Shown: piece after piece, positions 14,490 through 49,266 of the stretch
Numbering within the stretch: the stretch's first letter is position 1
How the letters are laid out: each line of letters begins with the position of its first letter
NCBI GenBank assembly: GCA_907165135.1
Contig: OU015567.1
Coordinates: 4,278,001 to 4,342,000 of the forward strand
Source of the DNA: Oikopleura dioica
Taxonomy: Eukaryota > Animalia > Chordata
Direction of reading: 5' to 3'
Length of the DNA: 64,000 nt
The notes under the pieces: generated by a model
The model's input: the letters and a program-made list of their open reading frames with translations, nothing else
What the model was told of the DNA's origin: nothing
Databases searched by the model: none
Program-made: the position numbers and the translations under genes

Positions 14490-16679
14490 AGTTTTTGAAG
14501 GACAAAAATTACCTTATTTTCATCGGGCTAGCGTATTTACGCTTAAGCAGCTATTCCCTTTTTTAATTGTTTACTTCCTATCAATATAGTCTATTGCTGA
14601 TACATTATCGTATATAATTATCTCGAATATATTTTACATTAAACCATTCAGGTAGAAAACAGGGACTTCTAATGTTCAGTTATCTTTGAATTATCTTGTC
14701 ATTCTCCATTTCTTCTTCTATTATTTTTATATATTTATCGCAAATATTATCGCTGCAGTCTATGTTATAACCGCATTGATACACTCATCATGTGAGTCCA
14801 TATCAAACGCGCTATGAAATATCGAGAGCTTACTTTTTCGATTAGTCTCCGTTTGCCAAAGTCGCCGTTTGCCCAAATTGAGAAAACGGCGACTTGGGCA
14901 AAAGGCGACATTGGCGAACAAGACCACTCTATTTTTTTAAATTACAGTTGGTTTCCTATTTTCCGGAGTCCACTTTTCCGGACAATTTTCAGATTTTAAG
15001 GCCTTTGAGTGGGACACTGCAAAATCGACGATGGTCCAATTTTCCGGACTTTTTTCAAATTTTATTGAGAGGTTATAATTTTTTTTGGGAAAATAGAGGC
15101 AATCGACGGCTGAATTAAATTCTTTTCGGGCGCAAGTGGACCTTGTTGGCGAGATTTCCATCAATTGTCAGAAGCTAAAAGTTTACTCCGTGGTAAATCG
15201 ACTTTTAGACTGAAAAATGTCTGTTTCTCGAAAAAATTTAAGTAAACTTGGTGGCACATGCATTTTTATCCGGTGACAGTCACCGGGTGACCCATTTTTC
15301 CGGACATTTTTTCGAAGACCAGGGGACAAAATTTGTCCGGAAAAAAGGAAACCAACTGTACATATAATAACTGCAATCATCTGTCAGATCATTTTACAAA
15401 CAAGCAATTAAAAAAAATAGACATTTCAATTAATAAATCTTCAAATAGAAAAGTTGTTCCAAGTTTTTTTGAACTTATCACTGACACATTACACTTATCA
15501 TAATTCTGGTGTTTTATTTAAAAAAAATATATTGACATTTTTATCTCTTTTCATTCGTTTGAAAACTGAGAAATAGTAATCAACGAAGATGACTAGATGA
15601 ACAATTGCACAGCTTTAAATTTGTCAGAAAATGAAATAAGATGAAATTTTCTAGCATCAGATGAAGGATATAAGTCGGGGATCAATCACCAGAGCTAGAA
15701 AAAAGTTCCAGAAGACGAGATCGAAGAAGAAATTTCACGACTAGAGTGCGACTAGAGGCAGGAGAGACTAGAGGAGGCAATTAAACTGTACAATTTGCGC
15801 ACATTTCTTTTTTGATTGAAGGCGTCTTACGAGACGGTAATGAGAGGAGCTCAGCCTGTCGTAAGAGCTGCCCCCTATATCGATAGTATAGCATGCTCTC
15901 TAGCACCGAGAAGATTATGAAGCGTAAAAATAACAGTTCCAGAAAGCTATATAAATCGAGATCCCTGAACCTTCCAGCACAGACAATAACAGTCAGTTGA
16001 AAAAAGAGCCTTTTCAAAGGAAATCTTTTAAATCCGGTCAAAAATGATGAAATCAATGCTCTTTGGTCTCTTTGCCGTCGGATCCGCTTCTGTCGACCAT
16101 TTCGGCAAGATCCGAATGCCTCGATTTGAAAAACTGGTCGGTTCGGAGGTCGATTTGGCTGGCCCGATCGCCGTTGACTCGGAAAAAGACTGTACTGACC
16201 TCTGCCGCGTTGCATCGTTCTTTGCCAGTCCGACACGACAATACGATGCCTACTGTGATTTTGCGGATATCTACGCTGACGGACAATGCTTTCTCTCTGA
16301 AATTCCAACATTGCAAGAATTCATCGTCGACAAAACTGGCTCCCGTGCACTTTCCTGCCGCGCTCTTTGCTCCTTCATGTCCGACTGCATGGTTGTTCAG
16401 ACCGAGTCAAAAATAACGCGACGAATGACCTCCCGAACTTGCTCCTTTTTCAATGGATACGTCGAGGTTCAACGAACCAGGTTTCCCGTCGAAGTCGAGA
16501 TGAAACAGACCATGTTTGAAAAATACATCCAAATGTGAACTGCTGACCATATTTCCCCTGTTCTGTTCTCTTTATTTCATTTACTATTCTACTTCTATCT
16601 TATCTTATTATCTTACTTATCTGAGTAAAGTTATCTCATGCAGAAAATCGCGTTTGCCAAATTCACCCTGTCAACACAA
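14490..16679. repeat. Copy 1 of a ~3.3-kb tandem segmental duplication (continues at 27983-28050 after the LTR element)
   Basis: Near-identical to 29630-29954 plus 41807-43170. The PAN-gene ATGs are 26,493 bp apart; subtracting both insertions leaves ~3.3 kb. Confidence 0.85.
16044..16538 (+). CDS. Secreted 164-aa protein with two PAN/apple-like Cys modules (copy 1)
   Basis: Intact intronless ORF with a hydrophobic N-terminus and two Cx3C...C...C modules (DCTDLC...YC...QC; SCRALC...DC...TC). TATATAAA lies upstream at 15948-15955. Paralogue at 42537. The domain call is by cysteine pattern only. Confidence 0.7.
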   Translation: MMKSMLFGLFAVGSASVDHFGKIRMPRFEKLVGSEVDLAGPIAVDSEKDCTDLCRVASFFASPTRQYDAYCDFADIYADGQCFLSEIPTLQEFIVDKTGSRALSCRALCSFMSDCMVVQTESKITRRMTSRTCSFFNGYVEVQRTRFPVEVEMKQTMFEKYIQM

Positions 16680-16952: not shown

Positions 16953-16964
16953 TCCCTCCCCTCC
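16953..16964 (-). other. Polypurine tract GGAGGGGAGGGA
   Basis: All-purine 12-mer immediately upstream of the 3' LTR on the minus strand. Confidence 0.9.
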
Positions 16965-18281: not shown

Positions 18282-18364
18282 CGCCGACTGTATTTAAAGT
18301 GATCAAAATCTGTCGATTCATCAAATTTTGAAGTTTAAAAATTTGTTGAAATTTTGAAACCATT

Positions 18365-18829: not shown

Positions 18830-19320
18830 GCCCTCTGTTTCTTTTGTTTTTTCGTAGAATATAGAATATTTTTGAACTGGTGTTTTACAGTTATTTGCAG
18901 GAAAAATAAATTTATGCATTTGAAGGTTAACAGTACTGATTTAGAATGGGTAAGCATTGAACGGGTAGGTAGTTGTTACTGTAATTCGTGTGAGGTTAGA
19001 GAAGTGTAATTCTTGGTACAGTACTTTTTTGCATTAAGCATAGCTAAGTATGAGTGACATGATAGGTACGACTGTAATAATGTGTTAATTACTGTAATTA
19101 ACGTGAGATAAGCAATGTGAAATTTGTGGAGAATTCTGATTTTCAGGTAAATATCAAGGGTATTACTGTAGTTATTCTGGTGGTTACTAATGAGTAGATG
19201 GCGATTTACAGTGTGTTAGCAGGGTTACAGTATTTTGGCCTTTCGGCATCTTTTTTCAAAGAAAGTAGTTATAGTGGTTCTTCTTATCGGAACATCTTTT
19301 GCTTTCTTTGTGTGACTGTA

Positions 19321-25891: not shown

Positions 25892-27667
25892 CTCTTGAGT
25901 TTCCTCGATGGTTGTCCTGGTTGTATTGTCTCAATGCTGGACAGATCCTCACAGGATGATTGCCTCCACAGTTATAGCATGATATTTCACGTTGCTGTTG
26001 GTTGTATCTCGGATTTCGGTTGTTTTGGTAACCTCGATTTTGAGTTCTTGGCTCAAAAGTCTCCTTTTTATTTTCTTGCTTGTTGTAATTCTGTACATTG
26101 TAGCCCTGACTACCTTTCTTCTCCCATTTCCTCGTGTTGCTATGGTTTTGCTCTCCGTTGTTGTCGAACTTCCTCTGGTTGTCATAGAACTTTCTTTCCG
26201 GCTTCCTTCCTTGATATCCGCCCCTATTATTCGGATAACTATTGTGTGGCTTCCTGTCTTGTGTGGAATTCTTTCCTTCCTGTCGATTGTTGTAATATTG
26301 GTTGCCGGTTTTACGATTTTTATTGTGCCTTTCAATCAGATTGTTCACTTGGTCGATGTTTGAATGAGACAGGAAGTCTTCGGCGCTTTTGATCAGTTGT
26401 TCACCGGAAAGGTTTGAGCTGAGTTGCGCAAATACGCGATCTGTCGTAATTTTCTTCTTAAAGTTCATATCAACGTAGCTTCTGACGGCTCTTTCGTCTG
26501 GGAATAGTTTCAAGCATTTCATTTCCATGTTCTTGTAGAATCCTCTTGGCGTGTCTTTGTGTGGATTGAATACTGTATTTTCGATGTCGCGCATTCGTGC
26601 TTCAGAGCTTTTCCTTGTTATGGTGTCGATAGCACTTTTGAACCTTTTCAGGGTTATTTTGTGATGTTTTTCCTGGTAATCCGTCAGGAGTGATATGAGA
26701 CTTTCCTTAACTCCTCTGTTGTCAATTGCTGACAAAAGGATGCTACTGATTCTTTCTTCTTCAAGTTTTTCTTTAGTGTAAAGTCGTATTTGAAATAAGC
26801 TTGATTTGTACCAGTTTGGTAGGTAATCAATCTCATCGTTCTGAGTGAATTTCGTCAGTCTAATATCTTTAATATTTCCTTTTGAATTTCCCTCTGTGTC
26901 GATGTTATTTACTTGTTCTCCTTCGATGGTTGACGGGTCATCATCGCTTTCTTCGCTTGTATAGTCTGTTTCACTGTCTGATGTTGATTGTTGCATACTA
27001 GTTAGATTCTTCAAATTACTTCCTATTTTATTTATCGCTTTTTTAACTCTTCCACTTGCTGATGACTGGTTTTGCTCTTCTTCTGCTTCGACCTTCATTT
27101 CTTCTCCTTCTTCGTCTTCTTCTTGGACAACTGATATTTCTTGTTCTTCATCATATTCTTCTTCTTCGTCAAAAAATTTGAAGTTGCTTATTTCTTCTGG
27201 GTGCTTACGCTTGTTCCAAAGAATGTTCATGTGGTTTTTCAGGGCTCTTGAGTCACATTTGGTCTCTTCATTAAAGGCTTTTATAGTTGATACGTTTTCT
27301 TTAGCGTGTTCCACTACTTCGCTCCAATCATAAATTTTCTCTTCTGTATGCTTTTTCAACCAGTCGATTGTTGGACATGTGAGAACGCAGTAAATCTCGT
27401 CTGTTTCTTCTTCACTTATTTCCTTTAGTGTGAACACCGCCGCGATCGCATGAACTTGTATTTTCGTATTGGACGAAAATCTTTTCTTGAAGTATTTTTG
27501 TATCCTTCCACATTTTGATCCGCATTTTTAATTTTTAGTGCTTTGCATAGATGGATAATGTGTCTTTCTGGAATTGTCGTTGGTTTGATTTTTATTGTAT
27601 TAATTATGTTGTAGGTACTTTCGTTATTTTCTATCCTTGTGCTTGACAGCAAGGTTTTCTCCTTCAT
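25872..27667 (-). CDS. gag: Gag; probable single frameshift between ORFs 27425-27667 and 25872-27437
   Basis: Position directly after the PBS and a C-terminal zinc knuckle CYNCGGNHPVRIC. The gag frame stays open ~90 nt into the upstream ORF. Confidence 0.85.
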
Positions 27668-27694
27668 CGTTGCACGTAGGTTCGTTTCTCTTCT

Positions 27695-27706
27695 CTTCAG
27701 TCACCA
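27695..27706 (-). other. Primer-binding site TGGTGACTGAAG (first 7 nt fit a tRNA-Trp 3' end)
   Basis: TGG start 3 nt inside the 5' LTR boundary. The tRNA identity is an inference from 7 nt only. Confidence 0.6.
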
Positions 27707-27709
27707 AGA

Positions 27710-27982
27710 TAGATAGTGTCCTTCTCTTAATGTTCTGTCTGGATGATGCCTGAGCTGCTTGGGTCTGTAAAAAGGGATCAACTGACTGTTTCCGGTTCTA
27801 TTGTTGTATTTGCTTGTGTGTAAGTGGACAGTTTGTATATAGTAATTGAATGACTGTATAACTGACTGACAGCGTTAGATGGTTGGCAGAGTCTTATATA
27901 GAGTGGTGGTTGCTATGTGTTATTCAGTAAGATGTTGTCTTGGTTACAGTTCAGAATAGATCAGAGTTGGGACACTACTGTA
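27710..27982 (-). repeat. 5' LTR (273 bp)
   Basis: 272/273 identical to the other LTR; followed by the PBS. Confidence 0.97.
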
Positions 27983-28762: not shown

Positions 28763-29968
28763 TTAAGGGGGTAGAACTAGATTTTGGGAAAAACCGTGAT
28801 TTTCGGGAGGCACTTTAAATAAGAAAAACCTGTTTTTACTTATGATTACGCAATTTCCTCAAAAACTGGCTGAACTATCTTAAAATGAAATTTAAAAAAT
28901 TTGGCTAGTCACGTGACTCGATAAATTTGACGACGCGAATACGCTAAAATTGCGATATTTGAAGAGGTGGGTTGACGTTTCGCTCTCTAGCGCCAAAATG
29001 TGTTGACGAAAAAAAATTTTAAGAAAAATGTTGTTAGATCTAAGTTTGTTCTATCAACAGCCGAAGAGAGAATTTGAAAATCTAAGCTCTCCTGGCTTTG
29101 AGCGCCGGTCTAGAATCGGCTATTTTCGAAAAACCTAGTTCTACCCCCCAAAAAAGAGGACTTTTTTTACTTTCTCATCCAAGGCTTGACATCCAAGCTA
29201 ATTAATACCTGACTCAGATTTCTACACAGATCGCTGAGCCCATAATCAGAACAAACAATATCTTTTTTATAAGCTTGCTTTTCGCAAGTCATTCTATTCA
29301 GATGAATTTGTGGCCTTTTCTCTTCAAAAAGGGTACGCTGTCAAAGAAAAACGACAAAAAAATCAAACAAGGAAATTTTAAAAGAGCAAATCTGTCTCAA
29401 AAAAACAAGAAAGAAAAAATGTTGAGAGAAAATATTTTTCATTTATTCAAAAAAATATTTTATCTACTAGTACTTCTCGTTGGTTTCTTACTTCTTTTTC
29501 AAAACTCAAAATATCTTAATCCTTTGAAAATTGAGTTAACCTCAAACAAGGTAGTAAGCTTTCAACGGTTGAATAGAGCTAAATCAATCAAATAATAAAA
29601 TTTTTGTTTGGGTCTTCTTTATTTTCGCATTGGATTCTCATTTCAATGCAGCGATCAGAGTGTGCACAAAAAATGCAAGAAATCAGAGCTTTTTTCCCCA
29701 ACAGTTTTTGAAGGACAAAAATTACCTTATTTTCATCGGGCTAGCGTATTTACGCTTTAGCGGCTATTCCCATTTTTAATTTTTTACATTATATATTTTA
29801 TAATATATTATACATTAAACAATTCAGGTAGAAAACAGGGACTTCTAATGTTCAGTTATCTTTGAATTATCTTGTCATTCTCTCTATTATTTTATATACT
29901 TATCGCAAATATTATCGCTGCAGTCTATGTTATAACCGCATTGATACACTCATCTTCTGAGATCTTGA

Positions 29969-32885
29969 TCTAGAGGTCTAGAGAAATTAGCTGAAGTTAC
30001 CCAACCGTTCAAAGAAATAATTGTTGCACTAAAACCCGATAATCCTAGAAGATCGCCTTTAGCTTCTGCCTACCTCAAACATACTTTTGCACTTGAGGAA
30101 AGGCTCCTATGGCTCGTGAATCCTGCCATTAGATTTACTAAGAAAAGGAAGGTTATAGCTAGGTTAAGGAGATGTATTTATCAAATGAAATTACTAACGG
30201 CGAAAATTAGACAACTTGATAAAAAGATGTTAACGCTTGATAATGATACCATCTCCACAATAATTACGCAGCAACAAGCGTGGAAGTTGGCCAAAAGATG
30301 GATTAAAAACCCCACGGCGGGATCGTTCAAAAAATCTATCAACGGAATTGCTGACGACCTTTTAGCGTTGCAGCTCAACACCGTGCCGCCAAAAGAGAAC
30401 GTGCGAACAGAGTCCACCCAATTCTCCCCGACGCAGAGAAATTCAGGATTCCAAAGGTCAGTTTTAGAAAAATTGGCCCATACCCGGCGTTCATCAACTT
30501 CTATAAAAGTTCGAAAACTAAAACTATGGACTTAAGAGGTGTATCGCGTGGCATGGCGGAGAAATTACCTCTCCAAGCGTTCTCGAACTTGGTCCTCGAG
30601 CCATTCAAGGATGGTACTTCCAAAGGTAAATTTATTAGCGATTGGATTGAGAATAAAGTTACGCCTTTACTGAAGCCTAATGGCTCCCCCAGACCTATTA
30701 CGATTACGCCTTGGCCTCTCGGGCTCCTAGAAAAGGCTTATAGTGAAGCCTTTATCATTTTCATGGAAGATAAAAAAATAGTTCCTTCGCAGCAGTATGG
30801 TTTTCGTAAATACCGTAGCTGCGGCGGAGCGGCTTTTGAAGCAGCGTTTGCCGTAAACTGCCTTAGCGGCGGCGAAAACAAGGAAGGTAGGTCGCAGACC
30901 TTCCCTTGTACGGGCATGATCAGCTGCGATGCCAAAAATGCGTTCGGGGTGGTCCCTCATGATAAGTTCCTAGAGGCACTTAGGGGGATCGCCTCGAACG
31001 CATTTGTAGAATTTATTGCCGCGTATCTGGTACGTAGCTTTAGGGCGGTCCTGAACGGATTCGTCAGTGATAAAAAGGTGCTTCCCCCTTGGGGACTGCC
31101 GCAAGGCAGTTCCCTCTCGCCTCCCTTTTATATTTTCTATTGTTCGACCTTTAACAATAGTTTAGTAGTCGATCGGGAGGATTCAAGCACGAGGATGGAT
31201 CAAGAAGTTGACGATCTGGTCAATGAGCAAAGCTGTAATCGAGAAGATCATCAGCTTCTAGAGCTCTCTCTAGCTTCAGGTGACTTGCTTATGAAAATGG
31301 GACGCAGAAAATGCGATCACCAAATCAGCATGTCCACGGGCATCTCACTCTCGTTTGCAGATGATTACATCCTTCTAGTGAATGGCTTCACCATCTCCAG
31401 CACTCTCAGATCTTTGGCGAGCTCTGCGAACTTGGTCCTGGATGAAATGCAAATATCCGGCATCAAAACGGCGCCGCACAAAAGCAACTTGATTATTTTT
31501 GGTAAGTCCGAACCAATCAGTCAAGACGCTCAAGTGATTAATAGCTGGTTCACAAATGATAAGGGGGAAAAGGGTATCATCATGGATGGTACTTTTGTAA
31601 AGTCTTCGGACAAAACTAAATACCTGGGCATTTGGGTGGAAAATAAGAACGGTCGACTCTCTTTTGATCTACACCACAAGGTCACGAGAGGTCGATTCAA
31701 AGCCATATCAGAGCAGATAAGTGTTATTTTTCATACAATGCCACTAAATATGCTTGCAAACATTGTCAGAGCGCAAATGGGCGGAGTCCTCCTTCACGGG
31801 AGTGACTACATTAACCCACCTGACCGAATGACTCTTGATAGTATGCAAAAGATCTACTCGAACACGCTCTGGCAAAAGAGGTCTCTGCCCTACTTTCTCC
31901 TAGACAAAAGTTGGAGTTGAAAGATAAAGACAGGCTAGCCTTTGAGGCTTTTAAAATGCGTTTTTACGACAAATACTTCAACTTTTGTCCTGAGGAAAAG
32001 TATTGGGCAGTCTTTCTAGCTGGGCAAATCCCTTTGCATTTCATGATAATGAAGCAAGGGATTATGAGCATTTATAAAAGTTTTCGATATCAGATACCGG
32101 AGCTACCAGCCAAATTGGTTAGGTTAGGACTTATGATCTGCGATCGTTTCGGCGATCCAATTTGTCCCTTACCGGAGGTCTTTTTATCAGAACGACTTAA
32201 AAATCAATTTATGAATAACTCCAGATTCGGTAAAAATAGAGTCTCCGGAATTCTGCTTAGAAAAGAACTTGAACTAATATTTCTGGCACAAGATTTCTAC
32301 CATCGTTTTGTCGATCTATTGGACACTGACACAATCGAAATTAGGTTCATCGTTCCCAAAAAGGACCTGGAAAACCGTTTTAAGATTGATAAAAAAGCTT
32401 GGCCTTGGTATCTAGCTGAGGCATTCAATAGTCTGCCGAATTACACGAGGAAAATGTTCGTTAATTTCAACTTTCCAAGTGTACTCAAAGACACAATCAA
32501 GAACACACATTTCCACGAAGGTTACACTTTCAAGTGTGATGCCTGTACTGGGCCAGTCAATGTATTATTCGAGGAAGGTATCAGACTTCCCTTAGTACTA
32601 AACAGCCCGGACGATTGGGACCTAAACAGTTATGACTACAACACAAGGAACCAACTTGCGGCGGGTACTGCTGCACTTATTGCATGGTTCTCAATGTCAA
32701 AAATTGACCGCCTAAGAATTGAATCGCCTCTGCTTTTCCACCAATTTTATATCCAAATGTGTAAAATTTCTCTACAGAAGGGCTTTGGTGGAATAATAAG
32801 TGGTCTTCTTTACGATAAGAATTTTAGGCATGAGATTAGGGAAATTATCTGGATTTTTGATAAGACAGCGTTTAAAGACCATTGA
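29969..32885 (+). CDS. LINE-type reverse transcriptase ORF (endonuclease end missing); two -1 frameshifts (~30.4 kb, ~31910)
   Basis: QQYGFRK, DAKNAFGVVPH, GLPQGSSLSP, FADD, KYLGI, thumb-like EAFNSLP and a late H...CxxC. The N-terminal part resembles the APE-RT linker, and the frame is open to within 14 nt of the insertion boundary. Confidence 0.9.
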
Positions 32886-32937
32886 CCCAAACCGCTCTAC
32901 CCTAGGCACTCTCCGATAAATTCCGACTAAAGACAAA

Positions 32938-34296
32938 ATGGCTAACCCATTCTTTTAGCGACGAGTTTTGGCGCTCAAAGACTTTTGGCGGTCAAACAAT
33001 CAATCGCGCCCATTTTCTGCGATGAAATTGCCCTGTTTTCGACACGGACAAAAACGACCTCGCTCTGGCCGCCTTTCATCCTAGCCAGTCGTTTCTTCAC
33101 GAAAATGCTCGACGATAAACCGATTACTCCCTCCGGCCTAATTGACTCTAAACCCTGTCCACCTCCGAGCATGAACATGTTCTGCGAATCTGACTGTCGG
33201 CTGATTGATCGCTATGCAGCCCGTTACGATGAATTCTTTCAAAATGGGTTAGAAGTCGTCAGATGGATTCTCGGAGAGCCAATATTCAAAAGGTTCCTGG
33301 TAGGAAAATCTGAAGACGAGACTCGAAAATGGGTTGAGTCATGGAAAAAGGCCTGATCTTCAAACTCCACGACCCGACAATTGGCTTGCCAGCATGGTCC
33401 TATCTCAACGAAGCATGTGACTCCCTTCTAGGGAGCATCCTGTTGAGAGATGAACCGAAGGGAGGTTACACACCTTCCTTTGACGCTCGGCTCGCAAAAA
33501 TTGCTGGTAAACTCCTCTGCGCAACATATGAGTGTGGAGAAGGCGCCCAGTTAATCGATCTCGCGCTGCTGTCGAATGACTATCAGCTACTGGACGTTCT
33601 GCATGCAATGTGGCAACTGAACCCAATCCGCTGGAAGACAGAACAATCGATTCTTCTGCGTCCATCCGGCTGGACTTCGCTAGATGCGATAAACAGCGCG
33701 GGTTTGGTAGCACAAGCAATATCCATTCATTCTGAAGTATCCGGACTAGCGGTTGAAGCAATGGCATGCATAGCCTGTCACCCAACCTCATACGAAATAA
33801 TGAAATGCCGGGATTTGGCAGAATACTCCTTGGCAGACAGCGGACTCAAGAATGCCTCCAAGAAGTTAGCAGAAAATGGGCTTGTTAAGCCAAAAAACGA
33901 GCTCGCGACAATCTCCAAGTTCCTCGATATCGGAACTACGCAATGTAAAGCAGTTTCGGATGTTCTCGAGGAAAATCTTGGGATCACGTTATATGACCTT
34001 ATTTCCGAAGCAATCACCTGTACGGCAAAGAACGCTTGTTCCTGTGGCAAAGTCATCGCAACCGCGGCGAAAGCCGACGAGGACTACATGGGGATGGCCT
34101 TCTTCACCGTCAAAAATGGCTCACTGAAGTGGTGCATGACATTTATGTAAATGAAGAAAATGGGAAGCTTTTTAAGCTAAACCTTCTTCAAAAAGTAACG
34201 GAGCGTAAGTGCAAGCTACTTCATATACACTGCATGGTTACTAAACTCACCAAAAGCTACAGCTTCCAAAATCCTTCGGGCCGATTGTCCAATTAA
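32938..34296 (+). CDS. Cargo ORF 1, intronless, ~450 aa after repairing three homopolymer deletions; unknown function
   Basis: ATG 52 nt after the RT stop. ORFs 32985-33356, 33341-34150 and 34036-34296 overlap in successive -1 frames, and each join can be made at a C or A run. Confidence 0.65.
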
Positions 34297-34334
34297 AAAT
34301 AGAAGCGATAAATCAAGCTTCCATTTATATAATA

Positions 34335-34963
34335 ATGGATCTTGCCAAAAACTGCGTCAAAATCGCCCCTCCAGTAACTCACGCCGATTTTGTCATTAAA
34401 AACGTAGCAAAAAAGCACAGCCCGTCCTCAGACAAACCTATTACTCTTCAATCTTTCCCTGTAGTCAGACAGAATTGGTTTTCATAACGCCGCAGAACTT
34501 GAATAAAGAACTTGAAAGAGTTCGGGAAATTTCTAAGCTAAATTTGCAATCAGCACTTAAGAAAATCAATGAATCTGCGCGTGATTATGATTTCCAGATA
34601 TACCAGACTTACTCATGTCTCTCAATCTTTTATGATCATCAATTGAACCAAGTGGCAGCGGATCTCCTCTCAGCGCCAGACCTAAACGGGTTGGCGAATC
34701 GGGAGGGATACTCGGCCTCAGACTTTCGGCATATTGATTTTCATAAGTTAGCAACTGATCTTAAAAAGGCAAACAATAAAACCTGCCTTGGAGCATCTAA
34801 ATTTAATCAGCCCTTTTCAGAACCGATCTGTGAACCAAGGGAGGTCACAGACCTTCATCGGTTCCTGGAAAGTCACTGTAACGCCGATGCAAATCTATCC
34901 CAAGAGCCAGAAGAATGCAATCTTTACGATTCTCTCCCTTCACTCGATCTGGTTCAAGACTAA
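34335..34963 (+). CDS. Cargo ORF 2, intronless, ~210 aa after one repair; unknown function
   Basis: ATG 38 nt after the ORF 1 stop; -1 join into ORF 34475-34963; followed by a pyrimidine-rich UTR and AATAAAATAAA at 35306-35316. Confidence 0.6.
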
Positions 34964-35537
34964 CAAAGACCCTTTGAATAGCTGCCTTCGTTAACTCGTA
35001 AGTCATCTGCTGTTCTTTCATCTCAAGTGGTTATTCTTCCCCTATAAAGTCTACTCGTTTGCGCTTTTATAAAGCGTCGACAACTCCGCAAGACACCTTT
35101 TCAGCGTATTTATATTAAAAATCCACCGTGTTATCTCCTTGGATTACACTCATTCTCGCGTTTTGTTATAAAAATCTCCTTCCGTTAATACAATCTCTTC
35201 TTTTCTACTCTAGTTCTCCTCAGCTTTATCATGCCCTGCTTTTAATCGTTTTGTTTACTACACAATCACACCGTTTACTAGATTCATACTCTCCTGTTCT
35301 TGCTCAATAAAATAAAACTTAATGATCAAGCGATTTCGCTGACTGGAATTGTTGGATTACGCAACAAAAACTAGTCATCTTGATAAGTCGTTGACAAATC
35401 TTATTTCCAAGTTAGAAGTTTATTTAAAATTTGGAAGCAGAACAGAGGCAAAATTGCAAAAACAGGAATCTTAAGTGTGATGTTCACTTGGGAAGTTATG
35501 TTTCTCCAAGTAAAGTCGTGGTAAAACTAGCCTTAGC

Positions 35538-38500
35538 TTAGTTTGGTATGGTAAGTGTGGGCCCTTCCTTAGAGTCGACACCAGTTGTCTCCAGGAGTAA
35601 GTATCGGGCACTCAAAGCCAGTGGGATATCGTGTGCGAGTGATATTAAATAACTTTGTCCAGAGCTAGAGTAGTAGAAGGTATTTGTAGCGTTGTAGAGA
35701 CGTGCACGTTTCTTTCGTTTACCGGATCCAGGCTTTACGTAGAAGCCAGCGACGACGCAGCAGAAAAGCGGCAATAGTCGCTGTAAGTCCATAAAACTCC
35801 AACCCAATTCTTCCAATTGCTCCAGAAGAGTTGAGCGAGGCACAGAGTCTTTATATCTTCCCCCAGGAGTGTACGCTGGACCAAGATCCCCTATAATTCG
35901 TTCAGTAAATAGTGAGCCCCTATTTCTCGACTAAACTGTAAGGATACCTACCTCTCACAAGATCTGCCAAGGTCTGTTTATGCAGCTGCCCATGGGTAGT
36001 TTCGATGTCGGGGAACAGGTGATCCCACTGGGATTGTTTCTATTTTCAATTCAATGAGAATCAATGGAGGATTAAATCTTTTACCTGTAGTCCTCCAGCC
36101 TCTGCTTCCCTGACTTTTAATTGCTGCAGTTCGGATAGCAGAGTGCGCATTGCGTCCTGGTTAGCCTGACAAGAGTTATCCGTACATAAGGGCACGGTAC
36201 ATCCGCGCACTTTGGTCGGGTATAGGTGAGGCGAAAGGCCATAGCGAGTGAAGTCGACAAACTGAGTCTCGGAACGGTGCAATGCTTGAACGAAGGATCG
36301 TAGGGCGGATGAGCGGGAATCCCATGACATGCGAAGTTGAAATGGATTCTGACCACTTGGCAGAGCCATACGGAAACAATTAGCCTCGCGGAGATACTCA
36401 GAGTTGAAAAGAAGTGGCCCTTCGTCAGTCAGTTTGGTGATGCGGTCAGAAAGAGCTGTTTGAAAGTCGGAAATATTGCTAAAATAAAAGTTAGAAGCTT
36501 AAAAACTTTGCTATTGGCGAAGGTAAGGGCTTGACCTACCTTTCAGTTATGCTGCTAATGGTAAAATCCGATTCGTAAGCAGTAGGGAGAAGTCGTTGTG
36601 GCACGGGTGAAGTTGAATAGCGAGTTGGGAACAATTCGTTTAATGTAGATTTCTCGCTCGAGCTGTACTCAGGGCTGGAGACAATCATAGCGCGGACGAA
36701 ATGGCAAAAAGCGGAAACTTGGTCATCAGTAATGTTGGTCAATCGGAGATACAGATCGCCGTTTGAAGGAGAATACATTACTTCGAATCCAAAATCAGCT
36801 AGTAGTCCAGCTAATCGGTTAAGGTCGCGGCAATACCGAATAAACTCCTAAGAAATATTAATAGGGATCAGGTTTAACAAGATGCAAAATTAAAATGTAA
36901 TCAAGCTTAAGTACCTCAGCATTCTGTTCATTCTTCATCACATCTGGGAAATGCAGGGACAAATATTCACCGAATACGGGTAAAAGCGGGCTGATACCGC
37001 ACACAATGTTGCCTGTCGTCATCCCTGCCTTTTTCAACGATTCATGAAGGGGGGCAGCCAAGATATTGTGACAATGAACACTCCGTTCCATGGGGATCAA
37101 TCTTGAGTTCAAATGAGCAAGGCCAGAAAATGAAACAGTCTCGCGTGCAAGGCGAAGCTGGGAGGTAGCTTGAAGATGGTCGAGTCGGGTTGCTATGACG
37201 TGGAGTTGAGTAAGACTGGGCTTAAATTAGGATTACTTGGAGAAAAACCTTGCTTACGCTGAGTTGTAGACGCCACACATGATGGTCGAGTGGCGCATTA
37301 AGCAAGCTCCACTCAATTGGCAAGGCGGATAGGTGCAAGTTGCAACAGGGCCTCCTGCTCGCTGATAGTTGTTTGATGGGTCAGTTGAACACCAGGTGAT
37401 CGAATCGCTTTGGAGAGCATACTGATTCACGACCTCAGTTTGTAGTTGATAGAGAGGATGTTGATAAAAGAAGTATCCAAGAGCCTTTAAAAAGTGCTAA
37501 TAAGATGTCGCTAGGAAGGTAATAGACCTACCTTGCGCAAGAGATTGAGAGCGGACCCACCGGTGAAGCCGGCGAAATGGAGATTGTGCGCCTCAACTTG
37601 TAACTGGAGATCCGTCAGCGGGGAAATCATTAAGATATGATTCAAGTAATCCGTTGACATAAATAACTTCTGACAAAAGATTGAGGCCCCCAAGAAATCC
37701 ATTCGGTCATGTAAAGCACTTAGCTTTGTAGTGTAGAGAGCGGATACGTCGCCTTGAATGGTAGGATTGTATGAATCCAAATCGGTAATCTGTAAAATGT
37801 CAGCCGGGATCGCGAGCAATTGATTGTTTAAGATCTTTTGGTAGGCGAGAACAGAGGCTCTTTTCAACTTTTCGGTTAGAGTCTCAGCCTGAGGATGGCT
37901 TGGGGTCTGGGCATGTTCTCGTTTTATACGCGATTGGGCTGATTCAACTGTTGCGTCCAATTGCTGGATCAGTGGATTTTCATGAAGTCCAGATGAGCCT
38001 GAGAAGCAGAGAATAGTGTCGTTGGTTGCCACCAGACCATACTCTGGCTTGTTAGTAATCTGTTCTTCATCATCCATGAGGGTTGTCAAGGGGTGATTGG
38101 CCAAAATGTCGGGCTTAAACGAAATCGGTGCTGCTTCCGGGATATTACTTTCGGCTGTAACTGATTGAAGCCGGTTCTCCAATAAATCGAGTAGCAGAGT
38201 TGAGCTTGCTGCTTGATGCCCAGGACGGACTGCAGGTAGAGGGCCGCTGTTTTCATGGACGGAAGTCGAGTGCCTAGTCGCTCTTGCTGGATCTCGGCGG
38301 AGGATGCTGGTGACGGGAATGTCCGTAGTAGGAAGCGCGTCAGTGGTTGAAATTCCGGTCTGAGTGGTGAGTAAGCTCAGCAGAGCGTTCTCATCTAAAA
38401 CATGTCCGTCAAAAGAGGAAATACTGAGCAGAAATTAAAAGAAAGGTAGGTCACTTACCTTCCTCAATTAATCTGAAAACTCGGGGACGAGATTGTCCAT

Positions 38501-41149
38501 CAGCAGTGAAGACCATGTAGAGTCGACCACCACGTCGGATAGTAGCATTCATTAAGGAAGATGAATCGCTGCTGCCATTGTCTGAAGGAGATGGTGGCGT
38601 GGAGTGATCTCGAGCACTTGACTCGTCATTTGCTTGAGGCTCCGGGGCATCATTACCGGGGGGAGAATTACAGGGCGGATTTTGTTGCGAACTGTTTTCT
38701 TCAGTGATTTCCTGGGTGGCTTGTTGAGCAGCTTACTCGCGAGCCCTTGCGGCTCTTCTTTCCGTAATATACTCTTCGTACAGTCGGTGAAGGTCAGACA
38801 GATCCTCTTCGCGGGGAATATAGAATGGAGATTCGACAGCAGTTATGGACAACTCGGAAATATTCTTGACTCGGTCGGGATCTACTTTTGAGTTGAGACA
38901 CTTGCTATGGGGCTATAAACTAAAGTACCTTGGAGGGTCAAAGCTTGCAGAAAGTCCACAACGTCTTCTGTTTCCAGTTTGGTTGGGGATAGTTCATAAA
39001 TGCTGTGGATGATTCCTAATTCCGTCAAGACTTCTCGAGCCTCGGAGGAAAGGTTCAATACCAGGCGGGAAACGCGAGGAATCGCAGTTTGCTCGGTTGG
39101 TTCGGGAGAGTCGAGATCAGCAGGGTTCAAAGTCCTATCGAACTCTGAGGCAGTTGTGCACTGTTGCTGAGAAACATGTATGGCGGATAAAAGCACTTGC
39201 TGATAAGCGCTTGTAAATGATGGTGGTCTAATGACCTTTCGCAAGCCAGTAATATAACAAGTGCTGATGTCGTTAGTACACCCTTTGATTTGAAACGGTC
39301 GCAAGCTAAATAAAAAGTAATTAACGGAAGGGCAAAATCACAGCAGGAAGGTCGAGGACCTACCTGGTCTCTTGACGTTTGATACATCTGGCGTGAGCGA
39401 TCACGTCGGAATTTGTTGCTGGCTGTAAAGTTTGCTGCAAAAATGCGTCAATGGTGCGTGCGAAAACCAAGAGCAGGTCATTCACCAGTTGTGAATAGGT
39501 GCGTGATAAGCGCTCTTGAACCATGTCCTCGGTGTCTTCATTACGGGTTATCATTGCTGCCATGATCCTCTGGATTGTGCTCAGGACCAATGAGTGGAAG
39601 TAGCGGCGACCGTCGTGAACAAGGTTACCGTAAAGGCAAAACATCGAGTATAGTAGGCGCTCCACATCCGTTGCAGTGAACTTCTGGCACTGAGTGGTGT
39701 AATAAATCGCCCACTGGCCAAAAACAAGCTGAAAAGAGGGGATTGATCCTGGAAGTCTTTAAAATTAAAATTATAATTAAAAATGAATTAGGGAATTTCA
39801 ATTGTGTTAAAGTGTCAAAATTTTAAAGCTCTGTAAGCTTTATAATTTACCTGAAAGAAAATCTCTACGAAAATTCGCACGGAGGTCGAATCAGGGGCGC
39901 TGGGTTTCCATCCGGGAGGCAGACATGTTCTTTTCCCAAACCTGTCGAACTTAGTCTCGCCAAGCAAGGTTGGTAATCCATCTCCCTTCGTAGAGGAGAT
40001 GATCTTGTCGCCAAGGGAGACGGTCCTATCCTTGGTGGAATGGGAGTCGCGAACCTGTGCGTATAGGTCTTCGACAACAGCCAGTGAAGGCGTCACGAAG
40101 TTATCAGAGTCGTCCGACTCGCTGGCGTCGGTGGAAGCTGACTCTTCTTCTAAGAGGAGATTAATTAAAGCCCGAAAACTAGTACTATTCTTCTCTAAAT
40201 TAAAGTTATCTAAGAAAAATTTTGTCCAACGACAGATAGGGACAAACGAAAAATTAATTATTACAAATTTTACCAATAATTATATTGTACCTAGACTATC
40301 AAAATTTCACTAACCTTGAGCCTCAGGGGTCCTTCAAACTTTCCTCGTTTGGAACGTGTTACGCGTTGGTTAGGACCAGGTACTGGTCGTGGCTGCCTAC
40401 GTCGTCGGTTCCTCTTGCGGGGAGTTGGGGTCGAAATTGATGATAGCCGAAGGGTACGTATAGGAGTACTCTCAGTGACCTCTTGAAAGGAGGGAATACT
40501 CTTTTCGCAAGTAGGTCGAGGATCGGAGATGGGCTTGAATGGGGCTAGGGCCTCACCAGTCGGTTCATCAACGTCCATCTCTTGCTCGTCTTCGGAAGGG
40601 GTTTGCGGACGGCCGGAAACTGGAGGAGCAATGAGAGCCGTAATCTGCTCCTCGGTGTATTCAGCCAAAACCTGAATACAGTTAGTTTCCGTGAAATCTG
40701 TATTATAGTTTGGTTAGATTGTACTACTACTTCTCTTGAAGAATAGGTAGGTCTCGGACCTTCCTCTACTTTAGAAACTTTCTCATGTCACTTTCCGAAA
40801 TTGTGACTGGCTTCAATAGAAGCAAGTAGCGGCTCAGAAATTACTATACCAGGAGAAACAAGCTAAGTGATCCTGGATTAGAAAACTCAAGAAAAATTCA
40901 TGAAAATACCAAAATAGGCAAGTGTCATACTTCAAATAAAACAGGGTTGCGCATGAAATGATAAATCCTGATTGAAGTTGAACCCGGATCCAAAATGGCG
41001 TTGACAAAACTTACGGAATAAGGAGATGACACATCCAATGGGTCGGAGTGCGGGTACACTGCGACCAGTCGTGCGGTCCTTCGTGGTACTTGAAACCCTT
41101 CAAGGCCAAATTCCAGAGTTTCTTCGTCGTTTGGGAGTTGGGGGTCCAT
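35538..41149 (-). CDS. Antisense multi-exon cargo gene(s) inside the LINE-type element; roughly 1,400-1,600 aa if a single gene; unknown function
   Basis: GT-AG introns joining ORF-track frames exactly in phase: 40672-40930, 39306-39363, 37485-37531, 37216-37257, 36848-36914, 36479-36539 and 36040-36084. Further introns at ~39757-39850, 38424-38458 and 35920-35951 need a nearby 1-nt repair. One in-frame TAA at 38733-38735; the junction near 40.2-40.3 kb is unresolved; AATAAA on the minus strand at 35419-35424. Confidence 0.8.
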
Positions 41150-41779
41150 GACGTCCGGATAAATTAGCGCTCTGCTAATCGGGATGCCAAAAAATGAACT
41201 GACTCGAGTTTTTGGGAAATCGGACTTGTAAACAGATCCTCAACAACATTCTAGAAACGAGGTCACGTGATGGAGACTGGTCCATGGGGTTCTGATTAAA
41301 TCCAGCCCTTGACCCTGGAAATGCAAACTTGAGCATCTCAATAATAACCCATTCTAGAGAAAAACCTGTCTATTTTTATTTTATTTATTTTTCAAAATAC
41401 CCAAATAGATTCTAAAAAATCTTTGATTTTTAAGTTTATCTTAACTTTGCAATACCTTCTCTGCAAAATTGCAGCTACATTGGACAAGGCCCTTGAATGC
41501 GGATTTGAAGGTAGGTAAGGTACCTACCTTCATCTCTACTCCTCTTGGGCCAGCAGAATAGAAGAAGATGAATCAATCCAATCAACTGGGTACCGCGCAT
41601 ACTTTTCTCCCGCTTGGCTGGATGATCCTACTCTTCTGCCTTTCTACGCAAGCATATTTTTCATTCATTCGCTATGAAATCATTATTTTTATATTTCTTT
41701 ATTTCTTTTGTTTCTTGTATGTTCTTTCTTTTCACTTGCACTGTGTTACAGATTATTGTTCTTCTTACAATTATCTTTG

Positions 41780-41807
41780 AATAAATAATCAGAAAAAAAA
41801 AAAAAAA
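41780..41807 (+). terminator. Polyadenylation signal and retroposed poly(A) tail
   Basis: AATAAA at 41780-41785 and A15 at 41793-41807, directly joined to the resumed host sequence. Confidence 0.85.
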
Positions 41808-42536
41808 TGTGAGTCTATATCAAATGCGCTATGAAATACCGAGATCTTATTTTTCGATTGGTCTCCGTTTCCCAAAATCGCCGTTTGCCCAAATTGAGGA
41901 AAGGGCAACTTGGGCAAAAGGCGACTTTGGCGAACGAGACCACTCTTCTTTTTCAACTTACATATAATAACTGCAATTATCTGTCAGATCATTTTACATA
42001 AAAGTTTCCGCCGAAAAAATTTTTTGTAGTGATACAAACGACTAGTTTTTGAAACAAGCAATTTAAAAAAAATAGACATTTGAATGAATAATTGCTAACA
42101 CAACTTCTAATTTGTCAGAAAATGAAAGAAGATGAAATTTTCTAGCATCAGATGAAGGATTCAACGCGGGGATCAATCAACAGAGCCAGAGGAAAGTTCC
42201 AGAACACGAGATCAAAGAAGAAATTTCACGACTAGAGTGCGACTAGAGGCAGGAGAGACTAGAGGAGGCAATTAAACTGTACAATTTGCGCACATTTATT
42301 TTTTGATTGAAGGCGTCTTACGAGACGGTAATGAGAGGAGCTCAGCCTGTCGTAAGAGCTGCCCCCTATATCGATAGTATCACATGCTCTCTAGCACCGA
42401 GAAGATTATGAAGCGTAAAAATAACAGTTCCAGAAAGCTATATAAATCGAGATCCCTGAACCTTTCAGCACAGACAATAACAGTCAGTTTTAAAAAAAGA
42501 GCCTTTTCAAAGGAAATCTTTTTAATCCGGTCAAAA

Positions 42537-43031
42537 ATGATGAAATCAATGCTCTTTGGTCTCTTCGCCGTCGGATCCGCTTCTGTCGACCATTATGGCA
42601 AGATCCGAATGCCTCGATTTGAAAAACTGGTCGGTTCGGAGGTCGATTTGGCTGGCCCGATCGCCGTTGACTCGGAAAAAGACTGTACTGATCTCTGCCG
42701 CGTTGCATCGTTCTTTGCCAGCCCGACACGACAATACGATGCCAACTGTGATTTTGCGGATATCTACGCTGACGGACAATGCTCTCTCTCTGAAATTCCA
42801 ACATTGCAAGAATTCATCGTCGACAAAATTGGCTCCCGTGCACTTTCCTGCCGCGCTCTTTGCTCCTTCATGTCCGACTGCATGGTAGTTCAGACCGAGT
42901 CTAAAATAACGCGACGAATGACCTCCCGAACTTGCTCCTTTTTCAACGGATACGTCGAGGTTCAACGAACAAGATTTCCCGTCGAAGTCGAGATGAAACA
43001 GACGATGTTTGACAAATACATCCAAATGTGA
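42537..43031 (+). CDS. Secreted 164-aa PAN/apple-like protein (copy 2)
   Basis: Near-identical to 16044-16538. The true start is the MMKSML ATG at 42537, not the 42384 start in the ORF track. Confidence 0.7.
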   Translation: MMKSMLFGLFAVGSASVDHYGKIRMPRFEKLVGSEVDLAGPIAVDSEKDCTDLCRVASFFASPTRQYDANCDFADIYADGQCSLSEIPTLQEFIVDKIGSRALSCRALCSFMSDCMVVQTESKITRRMTSRTCSFFNGYVEVQRTRFPVEVEMKQTMFDKYIQM

Positions 43032-43303
43032 ACTGTTAACCATATTCCCCCTGTTCTCTTCTCTTTCTTCTGAATTAACATATATAAATCTGAAAATAAT
43101 ATTTGCCAAATTAACCGTGTTTACACAAATTTTTTTCTCTCTATTTTGCCGTCATTGATGCCAAGTTAATAAAATAAAAAAATCTCATAAAAATCACTTC
43201 TAAAAATGTCATTTCGGGCGATTTCGGCCCAAAGAAGAGGACTTTTTTAAATTCTATCATCCAAGGCTCGCCATCCAAGGAGGCTTATTAATGTAAGCTT
43301 TAA

Positions 43304-44723: not shown

Positions 44724-47700
44724 ATGAAATTTTCGCAAAATTATTCCCTGATTTTCAGTCATCTACTGATTGTACTGTTTTATTTGATTGTAAATCAAGG
44801 ATATCTTTCGAATTTAATCGATGATTTCTCCGAAAAAACGGATTTTTTTCAGGAAGAAACTTTTCAAACTGAATCAGTCAGAGAATTCGCGAAGAAAAAA
44901 TTAAAGGTAACATATAAAATCGACTTTTATTGACTCAGTGAAGTCCAGTTATGAAATTTTGCTCAGGTATGTAATTTTAGATTTTCAAATATTGAAACAG
45001 CAGGGACCGAAAAATTGAATATTTTTTTTACTAAAAAAAACATGCGGATAATTTGTCAATATCCTCGGGCTGAGAATCTTAGCTATAAAAGCTTTTTACG
45101 CAAAACTATCTTTAATAGTCTGTAATTTTGAGCCTCTCCGCTGGAGAATAACTGCATTTTAGCGACTATAAGTTCGAAAAATAAATATATTTTGATTCTA
45201 AGTCTAGTTTTGATTGTTCTTTTTTACCTGACCATAATTAAAACAGAAATTTCGACGCTTATCCATGGAATTTTTCAGGAAGAGAATATTTCGAGCATCA
45301 AAACCATCTCTCTTGAGAGACAAAAAGAGGGAGAAGAAGAAATAGTCAAGAAGAATCAGGTTGAATAGTCGTCAAGAAAGGGGTACTTAAGTGCTATTTT
45401 AGATGATTATTTACAACCGCGTCCCGAAATGCGGGTCGACAACGACTCTTGCGATCATCGATTCTTTGAAGAAAAAGCTCAAATACAAAACTTTTAACGA
45501 CATTGCTCCTAAAATGTCTCACCGAATGAAAACCGATGAAGAAGAACTCGGTAAACTCGCCTCATCTAAAAACTTGCCTTAAACCAATTTTAGCGCTGAT
45601 AAGGAAAATAACGCAGCTAGAAAAGCCAATGATCTACATTCGGCATGTATATTTCCTCGATTTCGACCGATTCGCTGTCGAAAAGCCCCTGTACATCAAC
45701 ATCGCGAGAGATCCTGTTTCGCATTTCATCTCGAAGTTTTACTACCATCGAAATGGATTCGCCGGGGAGAAGAAGAAGAACTACGAAAAGTGGAAATATG
45801 AAATGCCGGACGATCAACGATCAATGACTTTAGAAGAGTGTGTTCAAACTGAAGCAACGGAGTGCAAACGACCTTTTTTGAGCCTTATTCCTTTCTTCTG
45901 TGGCCATTCGAGGTATGTATTGAGATGTTGACTGTCATGTTAATCGATGTTCATATCGGTGTGAAATGTGTCTAATAACATGGGAGTAAGCCACATAGTC
46001 TCAAGAAAAAGCTAGGTATTGATCCTTCAAAATTAAAATTATTCAAAAACCACGTGAATTATATTCATTCAGTTTGTACCATGGTCCATCATCCTGCATA
46101 GGGTCCGGCATGATCGGAGGACCTAATTTTTCAAAAGCGAAAATCTTATAGTGTTAAGAAAAAAATCTGGTGGGAATTAAGGGATTCGAATACGGCGAAA
46201 AAAATGATAGTGCCAATATTCTAATTCACCGTCGGAATCGCCGATTTCTCTCGGTTTTTCATACTTATAATGGCTGCACAAACTTCTCTTTTCCAAATTT
46301 TGATAAATTCAGCCCTAAAAATCACAAATCTGCATAAAAAAATCCGTCTCAGCCCCGTTCCTTGATTTTTAACTTTAAGGGCTTGACGGCCCTTCGGGCC
46401 GTCTCAGCCCCGTTCCTTGATTTTTAACTTTAAGGGGCTTGACGGCCCTTCGGGCCGTCTCAGCCCCGTTCCTTGATTTTTAACTTTAAGGGCTTGACGG
46501 CCCTTCGGGCCGTCTCAGCCCCGTTCCTTGATTTTAACTTTAAGGGGCTTGACGGCCCTTCGGGCCGTCTCAGCCCCGTTCCTTGATTTTAACTTTAAGG
46601 GGCTTGACGGCCCTTCGGGCCGTCTCAGCCCCGTTCCTTGATTTTTAACTTTAAGGGGCTTGACGGCCCTTCGGGCCGTCTCAGCCCCGTTCCTTGATTT
46701 TTAACTTTAAGGGCTTGACGGCCCTTCGGGCCGTCTCAGCCCCGTTCCTTGATTTTTAACTTTAAGGGGCTTGACAAAGGCATTTAACTCTGAGGTGATC
46801 AATCTCAGTTTTGTCCCCAACCCCACCCACACCCGTTTGCATAAAAATGAAAATAATTCCTATTTCTTAGTTTGTTATGGTTATCATCTTAGAAACCTTT
46901 TGTTTTTCTTATAACGAAAATTAAAATTTTTCAATAATTATGAAAAAAATCATGAAAAATTATGAAAAAAAATATTGATTTTAGGGGAATCGATCTCACC
47001 ACCTCTTGCTTTTCAAGCGAGAGCGCTAACATTTGAGCCACCAAGGGAGGATCCTGGCAGTTATAAAAATCGCTATGCGGAGCTGACCAATCAGAGCGCA
47101 CTTGGCTCTCCATTCAAATTTTCATTAAACTCCTGAAAAGGGTTGAATCGGAGGTTTTTGGAGAATCAGTGACCTGAATTGAATTCCTTGGTGTCGAATT
47201 AGTGGAATCGTGAATTTTCATTGAAATTAAATTTTTGGTCCTAATCATGCCGGACCCTAATCCTGCAATTTTCTTGCCTCAGTAATTTTGTGGCCCATCA
47301 AAAGGCTCCTCTAAAAGAGCTTTGATGGTGATATCCGTGGTTGATAATTAAATATATAAAAATTATCTCTCATGATAAAGTTTTTGGTACTTTAGTTCTT
47401 ACACACGTGATAAAATTGAGATAAGCCCGTTTTTGAAACTCATTGTTTTTTCAGTATTTGTCTGAAACGAGGAAAAGAAGCAGTAGAAATCGCGAAAAAG
47501 AACATTTTAAAAAGCTATGCGATTGTTGGAGTTACGGAAGACTTACCCAGCACGATGAGAGCCTTTGAAATTGTCGCTCCTGAATTTTTCAAAGGAGCAT
47601 ATCACTTGATTGAAGAAAAAGATGATAAACTTCATGAAAAGTAATTATTTCTTCTTCTTGTCAGTCTTATCCTCAGAGTCGGCTTCGTAGAGTCCAGCCA

Positions 47701-48454: not shown

Positions 48455-49266
48455 TAGGCTTATAAGATGAAAATTCGGCCCTTTTTTCTAACTTAGTTTA
48501 GGGGTCGTATGACACAGTTTTAGAAAGCCCAGAGCCTAAGCTTTCATTTGAGCACCATATCAAGGGGTCTGGGTCATGCCCGCAAGGCAATTTATTGGAC
48601 CGGAAGTTCCGAAATCGGCCCAAGAACTCTTCAATAGGATTTTTGAGTGCCGGTAGTCATTCGAAATGGTTCGAGAATAGGTGCGTTAGAAAGCTCAGCG
48701 TCTGAGCTTTCTATAGAGCCAATAAAATACTGCTGCCATGCCACCTAGTGGCCACTAGGAGCGCTAGAAACTCGAATTCTGCCCTGGAAAAGGGATTTTT
48801 ACACTAGAAAATGTTCATTTGGTCGAAATTTCAGGCTTCTATTTTTGAGTAAAGGCTTCTTAGCCCTGGCATGGCGTTTAACGGTGGTCAAACCGTCCGG
48901 TTGAGACGAAGATTATTGCGCTTCCTCCCTAAAAATCCTCAAAGGTCACTATTCTAGCGCCTCTAGCGGCCACTAGGTGACAGGGCAGCAGTATTTTATT
49001 GGCTTTTTAGAAAGCTCAGACGCTGGGCTTTCTAACGCACCTACTCTCAAGCCATTTGGAGCCAGTACCGGCAACCAAAAATTCGATTGAAGAGTTTTAG
49101 TGCCAATTTCGGAACTTCCGGTGCCATGAATTGCCCTGCGGGCATGACCCAGACCACTCGATATGGGGCTCAAATGAAAGCTTATCTTCTGGGCTTTCAG
49201 AATATGTGTCATATGACCCCTCAACTGAGCTAGAAAAAGTGGCCAAATTTTTATCTAATAAGCCTA
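48455..49266. mobile_element. 812-bp non-autonomous hAT-like fold-back element
   Basis: 8-bp TSD CTCATCCC (48447-48454 and 49267-49274), TAGGCTTAT...ATAAGCCTA ends and ~315-bp imperfect inverted arms. Confidence 0.85.

Follow-up and report, generated by a model that had tools for sequence, protein, structure and literature searches.

Among the closest described systems are plant long terminal repeat (LTR) retrotransposons: in Retand, Grande and RIRE2 an antisense coding gene, aORF-3R, lies between pol and the 3′ end, and the excerpted accounts report that it has no homologues outside the elements, that its own promoter has been shown for Grande gene23 and that a nuclear regulatory role is proposed for it (PMC7264820, PMC11963269). 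Excerpts of other reports describe antisense promoters in HeT-A and TART, with conserved spliced antisense RNAs in HeT-A (PMC5537684), and an antisense nuclear protein, HBZ, in HTLV-1 (PMC11963269). In Oikopleura, excerpted sources present Odin as an exclusive non-LTR element of unclear origin (PMC4122922; the name also appears in PMC8008620), and long interspersed nuclear elements (LINEs) of the Odin type as nearly absent from the O. dioica assembly considered here. We analysed 64,000 nt of that assembly (GCA_907165135.1, contig OU015567.1, positions 4,278,001 to 4,342,000; the window in what follows) and describe an insertion that bears a reverse transcriptase (RT) frame on its plus strand and an intron-rich gene on its minus strand. 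We consider it, with a probability of roughly 0.65, to be a LINE-type retrotransposon, probably Odin, which carries the minus-strand gene as a fixed antisense accessory gene.

A single insertion and its sense-strand frames

A host segment duplicated within the window provided an empty paralogous target site (Table 1). In a self-comparison of the window, 14405-14796 matched 29618-29961 and 14790-14946 matched 41807-41962, the flanks abutting gaplessly around the insertion, while the copy of the segment at 14.4-16.6 kb is free of all of 29955-41806. This empty site establishes 29955-41806 as one insertion. Contigs of the short-read run X1 (possibly the origin of this DNA) and of run X3 were compared with the window over the element up to 39745; introns 1 and 2 of the minus-strand gene and the tail (39746-41806) lie beyond this coverage. 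In X1 the insertion occupies a single unbranched contig of 11,905 nt, beginning 30 nt ahead of the 5′ junction. The open RT frame begins 14 nt past this junction; its first methionine is codon 73, and no ORF1 is present. With a 5′ end that lies within a reading frame, a terminal AATAAA and poly(A) run and an RT, the insertion is classified as a 5′-truncated element of LINE type. No terminal repeats were found, and a poly(A) tail stands at the 3′ end instead. The sense strand contains 12 AATAAA in total. An Rfam scan returned two weak matches far under threshold, without any hammerhead at E ≤ 1, and a 16-aa match (L001) was discarded as a chance match in a frame full of stops.

The motifs QYGFR, GLPQG, FADD and KYLG were located in the RT frame, a pattern which we take to be that of a LINE-type RT. 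In the portion of the frame that is present, no Pfam match to an apurinic/apyrimidinic (APE) or restriction-enzyme-like (REL) endonuclease was obtained; an N-terminal APE would fall in the lost portion. A word search with the RT found no relative. The second sense open reading frame (ORF) lies 3′ of the RT, an extra ORF that is unusual for a LINE. Its pieces had no Pfam or PHROG match, and its single-sequence fold was unusable, with a predicted local distance difference test (pLDDT) score of 36. Comparison with the X1 contig revealed six omissions of a single A in A runs of the window (30390, 31905, 33344, 34111, 34267 and 34408), which produce two 1-base gaps in the RT frame and four in the second ORF; when these are read as N, both frames are continuous. 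The six sense frameshifts are assembly errors and the decayed look of the element is an artefact. Once they are set aside the sense ORFs are intact, so that the insertion is young.

The preliminary description of this DNA, made from its letters, had taken the sense ORFs to be intronless. They are indeed continuous, yet the sense RNA is spliced in some transcripts, at three GT..AG joints in X3, all of them plus-strand among the joints listed. Two of these break or delete the RT core and the third lies within the second ORF. X3 is listed as DNA by guess and behaves like RNA, every listed joint being GT..AG; since all three are on the sense strand, the sense RNA is exposed to splicing.

The antisense gene and its protein family

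The first model of the minus-strand gene had 12 introns and exact phase at 10 of its 12 joints, namely at nine consecutive short introns (42-67 nt) and at intron 1. This bears out the earlier proposal that at least seven in-phase GT-AG introns link the minus-strand frames, and the three junctions singled out at that time (37531/37485, 37257/37216 and 36914/36848) are all GT-AG and in phase. The probability of nine in-phase joints out of nine by chance is 5e-5, an optimistic value since sites were chosen near ORF ends. The GC content is 0.22-0.41 in introns against 0.45-0.54 in exons. The largest exon is 100% identical to a public automatic model without name or function, OKI2018_I69 chr2 g5074.t1 (P0001, 1,408 aa; 90% cluster n = 1), which shares the nine short introns and the 41014 donor and has in addition a 45-nt intron at 38736/38692. 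Three introns had been thought to need a 1-nt repair. None is needed, and for the two that seemed to call for one in the first model other canonical sites fit: intron 3 at 39850/39729 has a strong pyrimidine tract, a diverged X3 contig stops matching at 39734 and the related protein P0002 aligns across both exon ends, and for intron 2 the candidates are 40314/40193, 40310/40150 or a one-base error in this region outside read coverage. The 259-nt intron proposed earlier, 40930/40672, is in phase, but competes with 41014/40672, whose donor is the one used by g5074.t1. A family profile, taken from an alignment built with P0001 from which P0001 was then removed, picked out eight exon frames (E ≤ 1.3e-7), its sole matches in the window. 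These frames flank the in-frame TAA at 38733-38735 on both sides, which argues for one gene.

This TAA is real, as X1 shows no substitution or indel in 35500-39745. It is likely a nonsense change in this copy, because read-through aligns better to P0002 than does the spliced model (score 87 vs 63); the alternative is its removal with the 45-nt intron, as in g5074.t1, and a model with this optional intron reads 1,495 aa stop-free. The idea that the TAA divides the locus into two genes is unlikely: the seven related models, i.e. six 50% representatives and CBY10610, are single proteins of 1,266-1,524 aa, and P0002 aligns on both sides.

The product, initially described as unrecognised, belongs to an O. 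dioica protein family with eight other clusters. A phmmer search of 1.84 billion representatives yielded nine matches at E ≤ 0.001, the protein itself and eight at 24-32% identity. All named members are from O. dioica: five are Okinawa genes (chr1, two on chr2, PAR and XSR) and three are Bergen genes, the paralogues being chr2.g4893, chr1.g3838, PAR.g11948, XSR.g13923, CBY34785, CBY19115 and CBY10610. The other sequences are fragments (one representative and one member) and an 805-aa frame, P0004. The family surfaced solely with the full phmmer search; word searches with the antisense protein returned only itself or nothing, and it had no PHROG, PDB-sequence, phage or Atlas match. Pairwise identities are mostly 21-33%, and in a tree of the last 620 residues of eight gene models the terminal branches are long and no Okinawa gene pairs closely with a Bergen one, a pattern that seems more in keeping with a diverse mobile family of low copy number than with a host gene. 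The searches brought up no ordinary orthologue. The fragments P0011 and P0009 end as expected for intron read-in, P0009 at the position of intron 11, so that the relatives likely have introns too. P0004, open over 805 aa on a 2,671-nt Logan contig, was rejected as a spliced mRNA, since its N-terminal end departs from CBY10610 like intron read-in and it may be a genomic exon. The Bergen-type paralogue P0004/CBY10610 may have about 800 intronless codons where the antisense gene has six introns; the family would then have gained or lost introns.

Common to the family members are a disordered N-terminal part, in many cases with a basic stretch, and a C-terminal region of ~550 aa with two Cys clusters. 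N1175, H1198, C1224, C1229, C1234 and N1237 are invariant in 9/9 rows, and the cluster to which they belong shows purifying selection in X3. Pfam gave no match for the nine family proteins, including none to a transposase or integrase. Structure prediction and search, advised earlier, were carried out on P0004, with matches at background level. The model (11 rows, mean pLDDT 56) contains a small alpha/beta sandwich similar to the folds of SirA, Smr, SepF and Alba (Z 7-8), with the matches SirA-like at Z 8.1 (root-mean-square deviation (rmsd) 2.4, 69 residues aligned) and Smr at Z 7.9 (rmsd 2.2, 73 aligned) against a background of 7-8; Foldseek searches of the PDB and of viral libraries yielded nothing at E ≤ 0.001. 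This predicted fold is only a lead towards nucleic-acid binding of the IF3-C/Alba/Smr-like kind.

In X3, 19 pieces align to the element, 11 near-identical and eight diverged; the details given here come from the eight of the 19 listed individually. The diverged pieces include, at 81-85% identity to the window, parts of the RT frame (35/235 differences), the second ORF (37/204, 82% identity) and the antisense gene (43/223). This like divergence of the three genes suggests a sister element, from pieces that are physically unjoined. Of the 35 differences listed for the antisense piece, 25 fall at third positions of the gene frame (binomial p = 5e-6) and the residue is kept in 45 of 54 codons, while the plus frame over the same positions has five stops. 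The ratio of non-synonymous to synonymous rates (dN/dS), a comparison called for from the outset, is ~0.10 on this one contig, for which 40 of 116 differences are listed. The antisense frame is under purifying selection in the diverged copy. The match to diverged contigs breaks off 5-6 nt into introns 3 and 11, which indicates that these intron positions are shared.

Table 1. Coordinates of the insertion and of the features within it (positions in the window; introns as donor/acceptor)
Feature	Position	Strand	Basis or remark
Empty paralogous target site CATC/ATGTGAG	14789..14790	.	within duplicated host segment
Whole insertion	29955..41806	+	11.85 kb, LINE-type, 5′-truncated; target-site duplication none (0-1 nt)
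Truncated ORF2-like frame with RT, 972 aa	29969..32885	+	Pfam RVT_1, E 1.3e-11
Sense splices in RT frame	30457-30536 (80 nt), 30626-31165 (540 nt)	+	GT..AG, one X3 contig
Seven short hairpins pairing strong 5′ splice site AG/GTARG	30885..41531	.	motif scan and shuffles
Hairpin sites	near 30887, 36523-36539, 37531, 38446-38458, 39363, 40747, 41511-41527
Second sense ORF, 673 aa between stops, ~620 aa from first Met	32946..34963	+	no known family
Sense splice in second ORF	34205..34820 (616 nt)	+	GT..AG joint, X3
Internal sense poly(A) signals, two AATAAA	35306..35316	+	3′ of pyrimidine-rich 3′ untranslated region (UTR)
Antisense-gene poly(A) signal	35419..35424	-	~115 nt 3′ of stop codon
Antisense gene, ~1,500 codons, 12 GT-AG introns	35538..41149	-	phase, public model, family profile
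Introns 1-3	41014/40672; 40314/40193 or 40310/40150; 39850/39729	-
Introns 4-8	39363/39306; 38928/38882; 38458/38395; 37531/37485; 37257/37216	-
Introns 9-12	36914/36848; 36539/36479; 36084/36040; 35951/35891	-
Conserved N-P-F ... H ... C-x4-C-x4-C-x2-N cluster, predicted zinc site	36160..36345	-	alignment
Conserved Cys cluster 1, C-x14-20-C-x4-C-x4/5-C	37258..37400	-	alignment A1
In-frame TAA	38733..38735	-	nonsense change in this copy, or excised by 45-nt GT-AG intron 38736/38692
Predicted antisense promoter and 5′ UTR	41150..41792	-	sequence only; perfect donor palindrome near 41503-41531
Terminal AATAAA (41780-41785) and 15-A run (41793-41807)	41780..41807	+	sequence

Retroposition, splice donors and rival explanations

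Introns antisense to a retroposed RNA survive copying. The minus-strand gene is likely an accessory gene of long standing and not a recent capture from the host. In that case a full-length sense RNA would extend from the RT frame over the second ORF and the reversed gene up to the distal poly(A) signal and then be copied into DNA; the introns of the gene, lying backwards on this RNA, would remain unspliced and be copied along, while a promoter near the 3′ end (41.15-41.8 kb) would serve a spliced mRNA of its own. Since LINE copies are shortened from the 5′ side, even truncated ones would carry the antisense gene whole. The pieces of like divergence found in X3 for all three genes, as a sister element would give, support this reading, as do the dispersal and depth of the family and a hairpin donor motif common to both halves of the element. 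Taking Grande gene23 and retroviral accessory genes as a guide (PMC7264820), one may tentatively view the protein as a predicted zinc- and nucleic-acid-binding nuclear regulator that acts in trans on behalf of the element, in anti-silencing or in the control of transcription or RNA handling, and such genes may be linked to elements throughout the family.

The hairpin motif involves strong splice donors. AGGTARG occurs 13 times in the element and twice in the ~50 kb scanned outside it (shuffle mean 2.2, maximum 7 in 500 shuffles), and 11 of the 13 copies lie in short hairpins, of which seven are distinct. AG/GTR sites are masked in 11/44 cases inside the element and in 4/83 outside (Fisher p = 0.002, palindromes counted twice). 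Shuffles of single-donor hairpins are mostly non-significant (p 0.003-0.98), the enrichment holding only for the set. One hairpin lies on the sense strand in the RT frame, within a region spliced from another donor. The motif recurs on either side of the internal poly(A) site, in the RT frame as well as in the antisense gene. We infer that these hairpins mask splice donors. That the whole picture holds, with an ancient, fixed, reversed gene of 12 introns encoding a zinc-binding regulator that serves the element, and hairpin-masked donors on both strands sparing the genomic RNA, has in our view slightly less than an even chance.

Several observations weigh against an accessory gene. The TAA is in frame in this copy; the best fold match, at Z 8.1, is at background level; the target-site duplication is only 0-1 nt relative to the empty paralogue; the sense AATAAA pair at 35306-35316 is what the end of a LINE would look like ahead of a 3′ transduction; and the family search lists 50%-identity representatives, among which orthologues of other paralogues could hide. 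No minus-strand (CT..AC) joint is present among the three joints listed for X3, whose contigs are unstranded and patchy, and two X3 pieces identical to the window run unspliced over introns 5 and 8, while diverged contigs continue into introns 3 and 11. These unspliced pieces fit the sense read-through predicted as copying template, and also pre-mRNA or DNA, and thus lend no support to a spliced antisense mRNA. Of the original suggestion of a retroelement with its own spliced passenger gene, the single retroposed insertion, the purifying selection and the lack of an ordinary orthologue hold, whereas the spliced minus-strand mRNA was not seen in the runs compared. Target-site duplication is a variable trait among LINE clades.

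The internal poly(A) signals and the TAA also bear on a 3′ transduction, in which a LINE ending at ~35.3 kb would have read past its poly(A) signal into a convergent neighbour, a host gene of a fast-evolving family, stopped at the next AATAAA and been retroposed on one or a few occasions, with survival of the introns owing to the antisense orientation of the host gene. The AATAAA at 35306/35311 follow a 3′-UTR-like stretch, with the distal signal at 41780, the two 3′ ends are dissimilar (score 20), the TAA would be a premature stop in this copy, and transduction by L1 is known from the excerpted literature (PMC6431247). Yet no near-identical donor or source locus was found in X1 (unbranched, with one contig at ≥80%), in the 90% cluster or by word searches, in which a source, if any, could be polymorphic or filtered out. 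The matching divergence of the X3 pieces for all three genes and the hairpin motif, found before and after the internal poly(A) signal, also speak against it, as does a length of 6.5 kb compared with the 1-3 kb usual for L1 in the same excerpts (PMC6431247). We judge this explanation, the strongest of the rivals, unlikely.

A compound insertion, i.e. the arrival of an independent mobile unit (a non-autonomous element or a DNA transposon bearing this gene family) in the 3′ end of a LINE or two insertions at the same site, would agree with a family dispersed like a mobile gene and with an RT part that could end at 35.3 kb. It is made improbable by the lack of bounding terminal repeats or duplications around 35.4-41.8 kb, by the single poly(A) tail, at the far end, and by the nine family proteins without a transposase, integrase or other Pfam match. 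Finally, that the gene is now a silent pseudogene, any antisense transcript mattering as RNA (self-silencing), would suit the real TAA and the absence of any observed spliced junction, but is very improbable given a dN/dS of ~0.1 against the sister copy, Cys/His residues invariant across nine rows and splice sites that are all intact.

Around the insertion, the window contains a second element, an LTR retrotransposon at 16670-27982 on the minus strand, with LTRs of ~283 nt or more that are 99% identical and with gag, RT, integrase and an env-like frame; it is probably a Tor element, and a 159-codon plus-strand frame lies within it (18350-18829). The duplicated host segment, 14405-16576 versus 29618-29961 plus 41807-43069, has both retroelements between or within its copies and includes a gene for ~165 aa (16032-16538 and 42378-43031) whose product begins with a signal-like stretch and weakly matches the PAN domain. 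Host-gene exons at 44900-46000 on the plus strand, the translation of which we take to resemble heparan sulfate 2-O-sulfotransferase, have an upstream piece duplicated at 29214-29614. A tandem array at 46344-46775 is made of ~8 copies of a 55-56-nt unit, and long inverted repeats at 48455-49266, 62232-63091 and 6005-6212 are like fold-back elements or miniature inverted-repeat transposable elements.

Comparison with known systems

The element shares its host with Odin, and the reported near-absence of Odin fits a single-copy element with a highly divergent RT; it is likened to Odin by description and not by sequence, and the excerpted Odin accounts mention no extra ORFs or antisense gene. The listings returned by literature searches contained no description of this antisense gene; supplements and Repbase may already cover the structure of Odin. 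Like an L1 3′ transduction (PMC6431247, in excerpt), the insertion has extra DNA between its ORFs and a distal poly(A) tail. According to that excerpt transductions are usually under 1-3 kb with a near-identical source, whereas here the extra DNA spans 6.5 kb and a whole gene under selection, and no source was found. Penelope-like elements and Terminons are, in excerpted accounts, also intron-keeping retroelements, some of them large with several ORFs (PMC8557442, PMC6431247). Unlike them, the present element has no terminal repeats, no Pfam GIY-YIG match and no hammerhead (E ≤ 1); it has poly(A), and all its retained introns are antisense. Its RT motifs are presumably LINE-type, unlike those of Penelope-like elements.

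The excerpted accounts of HeT-A/TART and HTLV-1 contain no multi-intron, protein-coding antisense gene in a LINE. aORF-3R is similar in that the present element also has, downstream of its RT, an antisense coding gene under selection; its hosts are LTR elements and its ORFs plain, introns going unmentioned in the excerpt (PMC11963269), whereas here the element is non-LTR and the gene has ~12 introns and encodes ~1,500 aa. The usual picture of LINEs is one of one or two intronless ORFs. If our reading is true, a retrotransposon needs nothing beyond the right orientation to keep ordinary spliced genes over the long term, and some Oikopleura 'host' orphan genes (five in the Okinawa assembly) would be transposon genes. 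A new protein family in a tractable animal would then give access to the persistence of a low-copy element in a compact genome and to the shielding of a 12-kb RNA from the spliceosome. In nature, the locus would then parallel the retrotransposition indicator cassettes of the laboratory, and even truncated copies would deliver the gene whole.

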